64,000 bases of DNA from a virus. Lineage: Duplodnaviria > Caudoviricetes. The notes beneath the pieces were generated by a model that was given only the letters and a program-made list of their open reading frames with translations, searched no databases and had not been told where the DNA came from. Position numbers and translations under genes: made by a program. The stretch lies in the IMG/VR virus record IMGVR_UViG_3300042350_003801. One strand, 5' to 3'. Position 1 is the first letter of the stretch. The number at the start of each line of letters is the position of its first letter. Shown here one piece after another: positions 55,063 to 57,079 of the stretch.

Positions 55063-57079
55063 TCAACCAATAGTTGGGGCTTTTAGGGCAATTTCTTGAG
55101 TAGAAACTGCAGCCAAATCTACACTTGACCCATAAGTTTACCATTCTTATGGAGTGGACTATATCATCACCATTGAAGGTGTCGGACGCTTATTCCTGTT
55201 ATTAAGGGAACTATATCCCTCAGGTAGTCTCTGAAGTTTCCTTGAGTGTACTCAAGGCTCACCTGCTGATTGCCCGTGTTTTTTTTGGGGGGTTTCCAGC
55301 AATTCATCCGATGTTTCATCTATCAGTTTCCTAATAGAGCCACTAGATTTTCTAATGGAAAGTTGTGTGCGTTCCTTTCGTGCATCACTTCCATACCAAG
55401 TCCGGCTTTGTTAAGAATATCCGCCCAAGTAGGAATTACTCGGTTTTGACTATCAACAATGGACTGGTTAAAATTAAATCCGTTGCACTAGACCCATAAG
55501 TTTACCATTCTTATGGAGTGGACTATATCTTCATCCCAGTAGGATGTCGGACGCTTAAACCTGTTATTAAGGAAACTCTATTCCCCAGGTAGTCTCTGAA
55601 GTTTCCTTGAGTGTACTCGAGGCTTACCTGCTGATCATCCATTTATGGAGGACTTCCAGCAATTCATCCGATGTTTGCCGTCAAATTGCTTTAACGGAAC
55701 CCCAATTGAGGTTAAATGCCATAGTGCTAACACCAAGAGCAGTAAACCAAATACCAACTACTGGCCATGCGGCAAGAAAGAAGTGAAGTGAACGTGAGTT
55801 GTTGAACGATGCATATTGGAAGATAAGACGACCGAAATATGAATGTGCCGCAACAATGTTATAAGTCTCTTCTTCTTGACCGAACTTATACCCATAATTT
55901 TGGGATTCAGTTTCGGTTGTTTCACGAACAAGGCTGCTAGTGACTAGTGAACCGTGCATCGCTGAGAAAAGACTTCCTCCGAAAACACCCGCCACGCCCG
56001 CCATATGAAACGGATGCATCAGGATGTTGTGTTCTGCCTGGAATACCAACCAATAGGCAGAACGGGAACCTATGTTTCCATAAGGATTGGACTATCTCAT
56101 AATTAATAGAAATTACTATTAATCTCGGGCGCTGATTCTGGTTATTAAGAGGGCTACACCTCTCCAGTAGTCTCTACACTTTACTCGAGTGTACTCAAGT
56201 CTTAGCACGGTATTAGCATATCTATAAGACTTAGCTTTCGCCGTTTTCACCCGATTTATACTACACATTGGTTTAGTTTATGTAGTTAAAAGTTCCACTA
56301 ATCCCAAGGGGCATCGCATCTGAGAATGAACCTTGACCGAAGGGGTAGATTAGGAATACGGCAGTTGCAGCAGCTACGGGAGCACTGTAAGCAACCATAA
56401 TCCAGGGACGCATACCTAGACGATATGAAAGTTCCCACTCACGACCCATGTAGCAGTAGATGCCAATGAGGAAGTGAAATACGATGAGTTGAAATGGACC
56501 CCCATTGTAGAGCCACTCATCAAGACTTGCAGCTTCCCAGATTGGGTACAGATGCAGCCCGATAGCATTTGAACTCGGAATAACAGCACCAGAGATGATG
56601 TTGTTACCGTACATCAAAGACCCAGCAACTGGTTCTCTAATCCCGTCGCAACTTCAAATAAACAACCATATCATAAGACTTAGGTTATTGCAGATTACTC
56701 TGTGAAGTTTGGACCATATCTTCACCCTTTATACAAAGGGGCTGGGCGCTCTAGTCGGTTATTAAGCAGTCTCAACTGCTCCGATGGCCTCTGAACCTTC
56801 CTCAAGTACACTTGAGGCTTGGCTGCTGATTGCCTTTCGGTTTCCAGCAATTCACCCAGTTTCGTCAATACTCTTACGAGTAGGGGACACCGATTAGTTA
56901 ATGTCTACGGGAGGTGCGGCAATAAATGCAAGAATAAAACAGATGGTAGCAGTTAATGCTGTTGGAATAAGTAGAACGCCAAACCATCCCACATATAAAC
57001 GATTGTTCGTTGAAGTAACCCAGGAACAAAAGTCATTCCAGACATTACTTTGTGAACGTGTAGCAATTGTAGCAGTCAT
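55063..57079 (-). CDS. psbA: photosystem II D1 protein, five exons: complement(join(55063..55121,55355..55485,55709..56050,56280..56648,56901..57079))
   Basis: Exons total 59+131+342+369+179=1080 nt, giving 359 aa plus stop. The junctions restore PVDI/DGIRE, FNYM/LVFQ, FNL/NGFNF and NFPL/DLAA. Glu130 (GREWEL) marks the high-light D1:2-type form. Confidence 0.97.
55122..55354 (-). ncRNA. group I intron 4 of psbA (233 nt, no ORF)
   Basis: IGS GTGG pairs with exon CCAU; AAATCTA pairs with the 3' exon TAGATTT. The core is nearly identical to intron 3. Confidence 0.93.
55486..55708 (-). ncRNA. group I intron 3 of psbA (223 nt, no ORF)
   Basis: IGS GGGTT pairs with exon AACCU; TCCGTT pairs with the 3' exon AACGGA (P10). 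R CTTCAGAGACTA, S AAGATATAGTCC. Confidence 0.93.
56051..56279 (-). ncRNA. group I intron 2 of psbA (229 nt, no ORF)
   Basis: U|...G| junctions. P AAAACGGCGAAA, Q AATACCGTGC, R GTGTAGAGACTA, S GAGATAGTCC. Confidence 0.9.
56649..56900 (-). ncRNA. group I intron 1 of psbA (252 nt, no ORF)
   Basis: Exon ends in U and intron ends in G. P AATTGCTGGAAA, Q AATCAGCAGCC, R GTTCAGAGGCCA, S AAGATATGGTCC. Confidence 0.92.

Follow-up and report, generated by a model that had tools for sequence, protein, structure and literature searches.

Four group I introns in the psbA gene of a freshwater cyanophage: structure, relatives, and proposed mobility

Introduction

The D1 protein, the product of psbA, is the fastest-turnover protein of photosystem II, and D1 supplied by phages presumably keeps photosynthesis running in infected cells. 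A stretch of 64,000 nucleotides (nt) of viral DNA, IMG/VR record IMGVR_UViG_3300042350_003801 (the whole of which is referred to here as the window), carries a psbA gene whose reading frame is interrupted four times. This locus raises the question of what the interruptions are, where they came from, and how D1 could be produced from such a gene. The original prediction, made from the letters of the DNA, described them as group I introns without open reading frames (ORFs) and considered four of them in a single phage gene to be exceptional. In the present analysis, the gene structure, ribozyme cores, and relatives of the introns and a candidate mobility gene beside them are described. It appears highly probable that four selfish group I introns have colonized this psbA gene, and that they are removed by self-splicing and arrived by homing; the gene just downstream probably encodes a free-standing endonuclease of the homing type. 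If translation must wait for four ribozyme reactions, the supply of D1 would be tied to RNA folding and possibly to light, as has been shown for the single psbA intron of cyanophage S-PM2.

Structure of the Split psbA Gene

The split psbA occupies positions 55063-57079 on the minus strand, and spliced alignment resolves it into five exons amounting to 1080 nt, i.e., 359 amino acids (aa) and a stop codon. Exon limits were set by alignment to the intronless psbA of cyanophage Sf-FS3 and then by the rules of group I introns, in which the 5′ exon ends in U (T in DNA) and the intron ends in G; boundaries from the spliced aligner are good to approximately 4 nt only, and the sites fixed by hand are the four of the window. 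The features, in the order of transcription and numbered by the coding sequence (CDS), are as follows.

57116..57203, minus strand: PhotoRC-II RNA motif in the psbA 5′ leader (RF01717, 56 bits, cut-off 39)
56901..57079, minus strand: psbA exon 1, CDS nt 1-179, ATG at 57079 (spliced alignment and translation)
56649..56900, minus strand: group I intron 1, 252 nt, after CDS nt 179, in the Ile60 codon (RF00028, 67.2 bits)
56280..56648, minus strand: psbA exon 2, CDS nt 180-548 (spliced alignment)
56051..56279, minus strand: group I intron 2, 229 nt, after CDS nt 548, in the Met183 codon (RF00028, 74.3 bits)
55709..56050, minus strand: psbA exon 3, CDS nt 549-890 (spliced alignment)
55486..55708, minus strand: group I intron 3, 223 nt, after CDS nt 890, in the Leu297 codon (RF00028, 78.5 bits)
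55355..55485, minus strand: psbA exon 4, CDS nt 891-1021 (boundary from the U/G rule and the NFPLDLA segment)
55122..55354, minus strand: group I intron 4, 233 nt, after CDS nt 1021, in the Leu341 codon (RF00028, 85.6 bits)
55063..55121, minus strand: psbA exon 5, CDS nt 1022-1080 including the stop codon

Each of the four 5′ exons has T as its last letter, and each intron has the terminal guanosine (omega G); no other boundaries would restore the D1 frame. No ORF exceeding 50 aa occurs inside any of the four introns. The boundary of intron 4 was shifted by 2 nt from that given by the aligner, which restored the exon-terminal U, the intron-terminal G, Leu341, and the conserved NFPLDLA segment; the insertion in the Leu341 codon adjoins Asp342, a ligand of the manganese (Mn) cluster. 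Excision of all four introns yields a D1 that is 88% identical to that of Sf-FS3 and retains every conserved D1 segment. The four ORF-less introns of 223-252 nt, the U and G at their splice sites, and the intact 359-aa D1 left by their removal were thus correctly read in the original prediction, as confirmed by spliced alignment, translation, and the Rfam matches.

The gene is of the cyanophage type, with a full-length cyanobacterial-type D1, a phage gene context, and a PhotoRC-II leader, and its best DNA matches are psbA genes of Kyanoviridae. PhotoRC-II is also found upstream of psbA in S-SRM01, a phage of freshwater Synechococcus, and in many viral contigs, and is typical of cyanophage psbA leaders. 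When 25 kb of the window were compared by megablast with a phage collection, psbA was the sole match, and the closest phage was the freshwater isolate S-SRM01 at approximately 80%. A chloroplast or cyanobacterial origin of the window was ruled out because T4-like portal, tail sheath, large terminase, and baseplate genes are present in it; the window is derived from an uncultured freshwater T4-like cyanomyovirus.

A gene of this structure might also be an assembly chimera, in which similar intron copies from several phage genotypes were joined; introns 3 and 4 are approximately 85% identical, and Logan unitigs break within the segments common to them (55157-55223 and 55521-55588). However, Logan contigs from two lake-water runs of different studies (X2 and X5) cover the psbA region and bridge the junctions that they reach with zero mismatches. 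In both runs, exact contigs span exon 3-intron 2-exon 2 (55858-56480), intron 4-exon 4-intron 3 (55224-55520), intron 3-exon 3 (55589-55879), and intron 1-exon 1 (56810-57008 in X2; 56582-57031 in X5, including the start of exon 2), and the exon 2-intron 1 span (56453-56839) is exact in X2 only. Furthermore, the related contigs L205 and L218 independently show multi-intron psbA genes at the same sites, and 92-98% of the sampled words of the psbA region are contained in five lake-water metagenome runs of different studies from 2020-2024. Because exact contigs bridge the junctions and break only in the segments common to introns 3 and 4, a chimera is very unlikely, to the point that it deserves hardly any weight, and the four-intron gene is taken to be real.

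Ribozyme Cores of the Four Introns

A search with the group I intron model RF00028, which had been proposed as a check, placed all four introns above the cut-off of 50 bits (67.2-85.6 bits; E-values of 2e-20 to 7e-15), with matches across model positions 1-253 and no truncation. The P1 helix is formed between the end of the 5′ exon and an internal guide a few bases into the intron: GACAU with GUGUC in intron 1, ACUACAU with GUGUAGU in intron 2, AACCU with GGGUU in intron 3, and CCAU with GUGG in intron 4. These helices comprise 4-7 bp, and the terminal U of the exon is opposite a G in all four cases. An in-frame stop codon is found 2-11 codons into each intron; such early stops are usual in phage introns and keep ribosomes off the catalytic core.

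Conservation of the core was assessed by RNAalifold on 47 ORF-less psbA introns from the window, S-PM2, S-SRM01, and metagenomic contigs, and the consensus of P3, P4, P5, P6, and P8 shows compensatory double changes in 19 of its 25 pairs. P7 of intron 1 deviates from that of the family (GGCCA/UGGUC vs. GACUA/UAGUC), but the change is compensated. Two further elements named in the original prediction, the hairpin CT(T/C)(G/A)AGT...ACT(C/T)(A/G)AG and the motif TTAATAAC, are indeed found in all four introns, although the hairpin had been regarded as P5-like: it follows the 3′ strand of P4 and is P6 on account of this placement. The extra hairpin of 30 nt in which the motif TTAATAAC is located separates the AGACUA strand of P7 from the 3′ strand of P3 and covaries across the family. 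Introns of subgroup IA carry P7.1/P7.2 between P7 and the 3′ strand of P3, and chloroplast psbA introns at the same sites have been classed as IA1. The introns of the window belong to an IA-like family, which also includes the S-PM2 psbA intron. Together with those of S-PM2 and S-SRM01, they form one family with 51-81% pairwise identity, so that their proposed kinship is upheld by the shared hairpins, the identities, and the covariation of the family.

Origins of the Individual Introns

Positional orthologues of all four introns are found elsewhere, and their comparison suggests different histories for introns 1 and 4. Intron 1 is 84-85% identical to the intron at site 179 of L088, a 713-nt intron in which the core is followed by a LAGLIDADG ORF of 150 aa. 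It aligns with the first 189 nt (85%) and the last 50 nt (78%) of the L088 intron, the latter including the final codons of the ORF. Intron 1 is therefore read, from these alignments, as an ORF-deleted derivative of a LAGLIDADG-bearing intron that would have undergone a deletion of approximately 460 nt, and not as a primitively ORF-less intron.

Intron 2 has positional orthologues at site 548 in L073, L157, L205, and L218, and intron 3 has many at site 890, the best of which, in L048, is 91% identical. Orthologues of intron 4 at site 1021 are found in L205, L207, L216, and L218; by sequence, however, it is nearest to introns at site 890, with 85-87% identity over its 3′ 196 nt and a different 5′ 38 nt, in which P1 and P2 are located. 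Because the 3′ part matches and the 5′ part differs, intron 4 would stem from the site-890 lineage, and, most simply, an intron of site 890 would have moved to a place 131 nt farther downstream and acquired a new guide region.

Intron Numbers in Phage psbA

Single psbA introns have been described in S-PM2, S-CBWM1, and, according to its authors, S-SRM01, and no report of more than one intron in a cyanophage psbA was found in the searchable literature. However, unannotated public data, obtained by a pattern scan of IMG/VR and by look-ups via the downstream gene, contain many psbA genes with two or three introns. Alignment and Rfam matches reveal three in S-SRM01 itself (L001:2944-5349, NC_070963), at nt 276 (with an HNH ORF), 749, and 998; GenBank and RefSeq give two partial psbA CDSs and an endonuclease, and the gene is complete once the three introns are removed. 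Three introns are also present in L043, L047, L048, L075, L082, L207, and L211, as well as in L205 and L213, in which psbA is cut at the contig end. L073 has at least four. The highest count, at least six, was seen in L218 (JGI 3300032320, Ga0335328_10541570; 1-2910), in which the first 184 nt of the gene are missing; its introns are located at sites 230, 408, 548 (with a 219-aa ORF), 644, approximately 1000, and 1021, five of them above the RF00028 cut-off and the sixth bearing an ORF, on a 6.4-kb contig syntenic with the window.

In a sample of 80 phage psbA loci picked only by similarity to D1 exon 3, and biased in this manner against introns within exon 3, at least one intron was found in eight loci, at least two in two loci, three in one locus, and four in none. 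The claim that four introns are exceptional accordingly stands in part: no cyanophage psbA described in the searchable literature exceeds one, and the survey confirms that four are rare, but this number is approached by S-SRM01 and matched or exceeded in L073 and L218. Because other phage psbA genes reach three to at least six introns and the 80-locus sample has none with four, the window represents the rare upper tail of a recurring pattern rather than a singular case; its intron count is above any found in print for a phage gene and is equalled or exceeded in unannotated public data.

Over all loci, approximately 14 insertion sites are occupied (in window numbering, 179, 230, 276, 317, 408, 548, ~560-570, 644, 749, 890, ~990, ~1002, 1008, and 1021); the true S-PM2 site is after nt 1002, and the site given by the aligner as 1007 is after nt 1008. 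Between adjacent introns at sites ~990, 1008, and 1021, micro-exons of 14-29 nt are observed in the region encoding the Mn-cluster ligands (L207:4334-4834; L205:927-1437; L059). Gene callers fragment a split psbA, as in the S-SRM01 record, and surveys of marker or auxiliary genes therefore undercount or mis-annotate it.

When bacterial genomes were scanned, the pattern of the intron core proved generic to bacterial IA-type introns, and none of the few psbA introns among the matches listed was cyanobacterial. Short contigs with an intron-split, phage-like psbA are binned to metagenome-assembled genomes of Aureispira, Flavobacterium, Chloroflexi, and Flavobacteriaceae (L221, L242, L252, and L272); because they are short and binned with heterotrophs, they are probably mis-binned cyanophage DNA. 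IMG/VR contigs L030, L089, and L096 show four to six clustered intron-profile matches in 2-3 kb and no psbA, and to judge from these matches, other phage genes may be heavily colonized by introns too.

Homology with Plastid psbA Introns

Several group I introns in one psbA gene are otherwise a feature of green-algal chloroplasts, in which 4-10 are found: four in Chlamydomonas reinhardtii, four in Floydiella, and ten in Oedogonium cardiacum. The latter are located, in Mesostigma numbering, at sites 179, 276, 384, 408, 525, 548, 570, 645, 754, and 898. The sites of introns 1 and 2 of the window are exactly the Oedogonium chloroplast sites 179 and 548, an identity that can be read directly because the N-terminal length of Mesostigma psbA equals that of the window D1; Oedogonium sites 276, 408, approximately 570, and approximately 645 are also occupied in phage contigs. 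The endonuclease types correspond as well: a LAGLIDADG ORF occupies the 3′ part of the site-179 intron of Oedogonium as well as that of L088, and the site-276 intron has an HNH ORF in both Oedogonium and S-SRM01. By contrast, sites 890 and 1021 of the window are absent from the Oedogonium and Floydiella lists, the chloroplast introns (mostly of the IA1 class) are larger and mostly contain endonuclease ORFs, and the host of the window introns is a lytic phage genome.

When the L088 ORF was used as a protein query, a 54% identical ORF was found on the 107-kb contig VFQT010000156.1 (GCA_006365115.1; L340). The psbA of this contig (5593-7384) encodes a 353-aa D1 with the green-plastid N-terminus MTAILERRES, adjoins psaA and psaB, and contains at nt 179 a 730-nt group I intron with a LAGLIDADG ORF. 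Compared with that of intron 1, its ribozyme shows 83% identity in the first 90 nt and 77% when 194 nt are aligned; of the phage introns compiled, the two site-179 introns match it best. This is direct evidence, at the level of sequence, that a phage and a plastid intron at this site are homologous, and it is compatible with a transfer in either direction and of any age.

Tentatively, and with somewhat less than even confidence, a wider proposal may be made: the psbA genes of freshwater cyanophages and green-algal chloroplasts may share one pool of homing introns, as judged from sites 179, 276, 408, 548, ~570, and ~645, the endonuclease types, and the homologous ribozymes. Cyanophages would serve as a reservoir or vehicle of intron traffic between viruses and plastids, the number of introns gathered by phage psbA would reach at least six, chloroplast-type introns would have given rise to introns 1 and 2 as phage copies, and intron 4 would represent a recent jump aided by a new family of free-standing GIY-YIG-like endonucleases. 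At phage psbA, intron turnover among close relatives is seen together with an endonuclease gene apparently captured in the course of its loss, a probable site jump, and plastid homology. With this combination, the gene may offer a compact natural model in which the life cycle of homing introns, and their passage between viruses and organelles, can be studied.

The Downstream ORF as a Candidate Homing Endonuclease

A possible mobility of the introns in trans directs attention to the gene next to psbA.

54156..54983, minus strand: candidate free-standing homing endonuclease, just 3′ of psbA, with a GIY-YIG-like N-terminal domain, a helix-turn-helix (HTH), and a C4 zinc finger

Translation probably starts at the ATG at 54956, giving a protein of 266 aa. 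This ORF has 42 homologues with 64-98% identity and without a Pfam domain; it contains an HTH, and its YVY...YFG motif and four of its cysteines are invariant. In five of six look-ups of homologues, the ORF was located just 3′ of an intron-split psbA in gene contexts that were otherwise different. Wherever both the ORF and the psbA 3′ end are present (L205, L207, L209, L211, L212, L213, L216, L218, and the window), an intron occupies nt 1007/1008 or nt 1021, or introns occupy both, and the downstream genes differ. Residues 118-163 of the predicted model form the HTH (Z of approximately 7); a sequence search of the PDB gave no match, and a Foldseek search of the PDB gave matches to HTH domains only. 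The ORF was also considered as a homologue of F-CphI, the endonuclease of S-PM2, and this was rejected with BLASTP E-values above 6. With moderate confidence, based on the predicted model and on analogy, the ORF is regarded as a putative free-standing GIY-YIG-like homing endonuclease acting in trans on the psbA 3′ end.

A further observation on the locus concerns L217 (3900-4700, compared with window positions 54073-57291), a syntenic contig that lacks everything from the PhotoRC-II motif through approximately codon 70 of the downstream ORF, i.e., the whole psbA-intron cassette. The remaining 687 nt of its ORF are 99.1% identical to the window, whereas the flanking genes are 82-88% identical, and this difference suggests a recent exchange at the psbA locus. 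In S-PM2, collaborative homing and light-dependent splicing have been documented (PMC6083498, PMC5931967).

Proposed Splicing of the psbA Transcript

On the basis of these data, the following course of events is proposed. The precursor mRNA would self-splice by the standard two-step mechanism initiated by guanosine, and D1 would be translated only from transcripts freed of all four introns; the dependence of the D1 supply on four splicing events, as originally predicted, is supported by the gene structure and the ribozyme cores. Homing would have brought the introns to separate psbA sites, each of them highly conserved. Intron 1 would be the remnant of an endonuclease-encoding intron that lost its LAGLIDADG gene and has an ancestry in common with the green-plastid site-179 intron, and intron 4, copied from the site-890 lineage to a position 131 nt downstream, would have acquired its P1/P2 region anew. 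The downstream GIY-YIG-like protein would cut intronless psbA near nt 1008-1021, and the 3′ introns would be mobilized in trans in the manner known for F-CphI of S-PM2.

Several points weigh against this proposal. In the public runs searched, no spliced RNA of the window genotype was found, and the two metatranscriptomes sharing words with the window (5% of sampled words only) show the psbA of relatives. In metatranscriptome X25, an 88-nt contig with one mismatch (window 56824-56911) covers the exon 1-intron 1 junction in the unspliced state, which could be precursor RNA or DNA carry-over. Self-splicing without the help of proteins is assumed, and only 64 kb of the genome are visible, so that a second, intronless psbA copy is possible. 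As for the endonuclease, its assignment is weak: Pfam gave no endonuclease domain and only a sub-threshold HTH, PHROG matches to homing endonucleases are weak (E-value, 1.4e-4), the AlphaFold2 model has a mean predicted local distance difference test score of 70, and the superposition of its residues 23-104 on the catalytic domain of I-TevI (1ln0_A; Z of 5.9, 78 residues, root-mean-square deviation of 3.0) is weak. A joint across intron 1 in a metatranscriptome was also considered; with 12 divergent letters, it belongs to the spliced or intronless gene of a relative and is uninformative for the window genotype.

The absence of spliced RNA from the public runs searched would also be expected if the introns were decaying relics that splice inefficiently, psbA being a pseudogene or making little D1. 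All four introns are without endonuclease genes, and intron 1 has clearly lost one; moreover, P7 and J8/7 of introns 1 and 2 deviate from the family consensus, and these two introns have the lowest RF00028 scores. Nevertheless, the five exons retain a perfect 359-codon frame with all conserved D1 motifs, the P7 deviation of intron 1 is compensated, and the cores score 17-36 bits above the Rfam cut-off. The arrangement is unchanged in lake samples from 2020-2024, and orthologous introns with covarying helices are kept in relatives. Decay is thus quite improbable.

It may also be considered that the introns have been co-opted, such that serial light- or redox-sensitive splicing gates D1 synthesis during infection and a high intron number is selected rather than merely tolerated. 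A light response of splicing is known for the single S-PM2 psbA intron and the four psbA introns of Chlamydomonas (PMC5931967), and multi-intron psbA genes recur among lake cyanophages. However, close relatives differ in the occupied sites: L205 has no intron at 890 and one at 992, L218 has another set, and L217 has no psbA. Such differences are to be expected where selfish introns come and go rather than where a regulatory design is conserved, and selection for a splicing gate is considered unlikely. Colonization by selfish, self-splicing introns is accordingly retained as the preferred explanation.

Comparison with Known Intron Systems

The small self-splicing introns of T4 td, nrdB, and nrdD and of Staphylococcus phage Twort are of the IA type, interrupt conserved phage genes, and contain early in-intron stops, as in the window. 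Three introns are found in a single Twort gene, a number exceeded by the four in the window psbA. The T4 and Twort introns differ in their targets, which are genes of nucleotide metabolism or structure, whereas that of the window is an auxiliary photosynthesis gene. The downstream ORF resembles I-TevI of the T4 td intron in having a predicted catalytic domain of approximately 90 aa followed by zinc-finger and HTH DNA-binding modules; by contrast, it is free-standing and not intron-encoded, has no Pfam GIY-YIG match, and has its zinc finger C-terminal to the HTH, and the likeness comes from a predicted model.

Among cyanophages, the S-PM2 psbA intron is 59-71% identical to the window introns and has the P3-P8 cores and the TTAATAAC hairpin in common with them. 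In both phages, ORF-less introns reside in the psbA of a T4-like cyanophage with a nuclease gene, a putative one in the window, just downstream. However, the single intron of S-PM2 is inserted at the Arg334/Asn335 boundary (aligner position 998), which is none of the four sites of the window, and its downstream nuclease is the Endo VII-like F-CphI, to which the GIY-YIG-like ORF of the window is unrelated. The closest sequenced isolate is S-SRM01 (Kyanoviridae), which has exons of approximately 80% DNA identity, a PhotoRC-II leader, and a multi-intron psbA with introns of the same family. By contrast, S-SRM01 has no intron site in common with the window, an Endo VII-type gene is located downstream, and its record and paper treat psbA as two partial CDSs around one intron.

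Other Features of the Window

Two further genes of the window were recorded. A 536-aa ORF at 49751-51361, on the plus strand and opposite to its neighbors, contains OrfB_IS605, HTH_OrfB_IS605, and Cas12f1-like TNB domains and corresponds to a TnpB-type transposon nuclease. Near psbA, a 312-aa ORF on the minus strand (52132-53070) encodes a second ATPase resembling the large terminase subunit (Terminase_6N; phrog_5989, E-value of 3e-48). The complete large terminase is encoded at 16117-17799, and the second terminase-like ORF is kept in the relatives L218 and L219.

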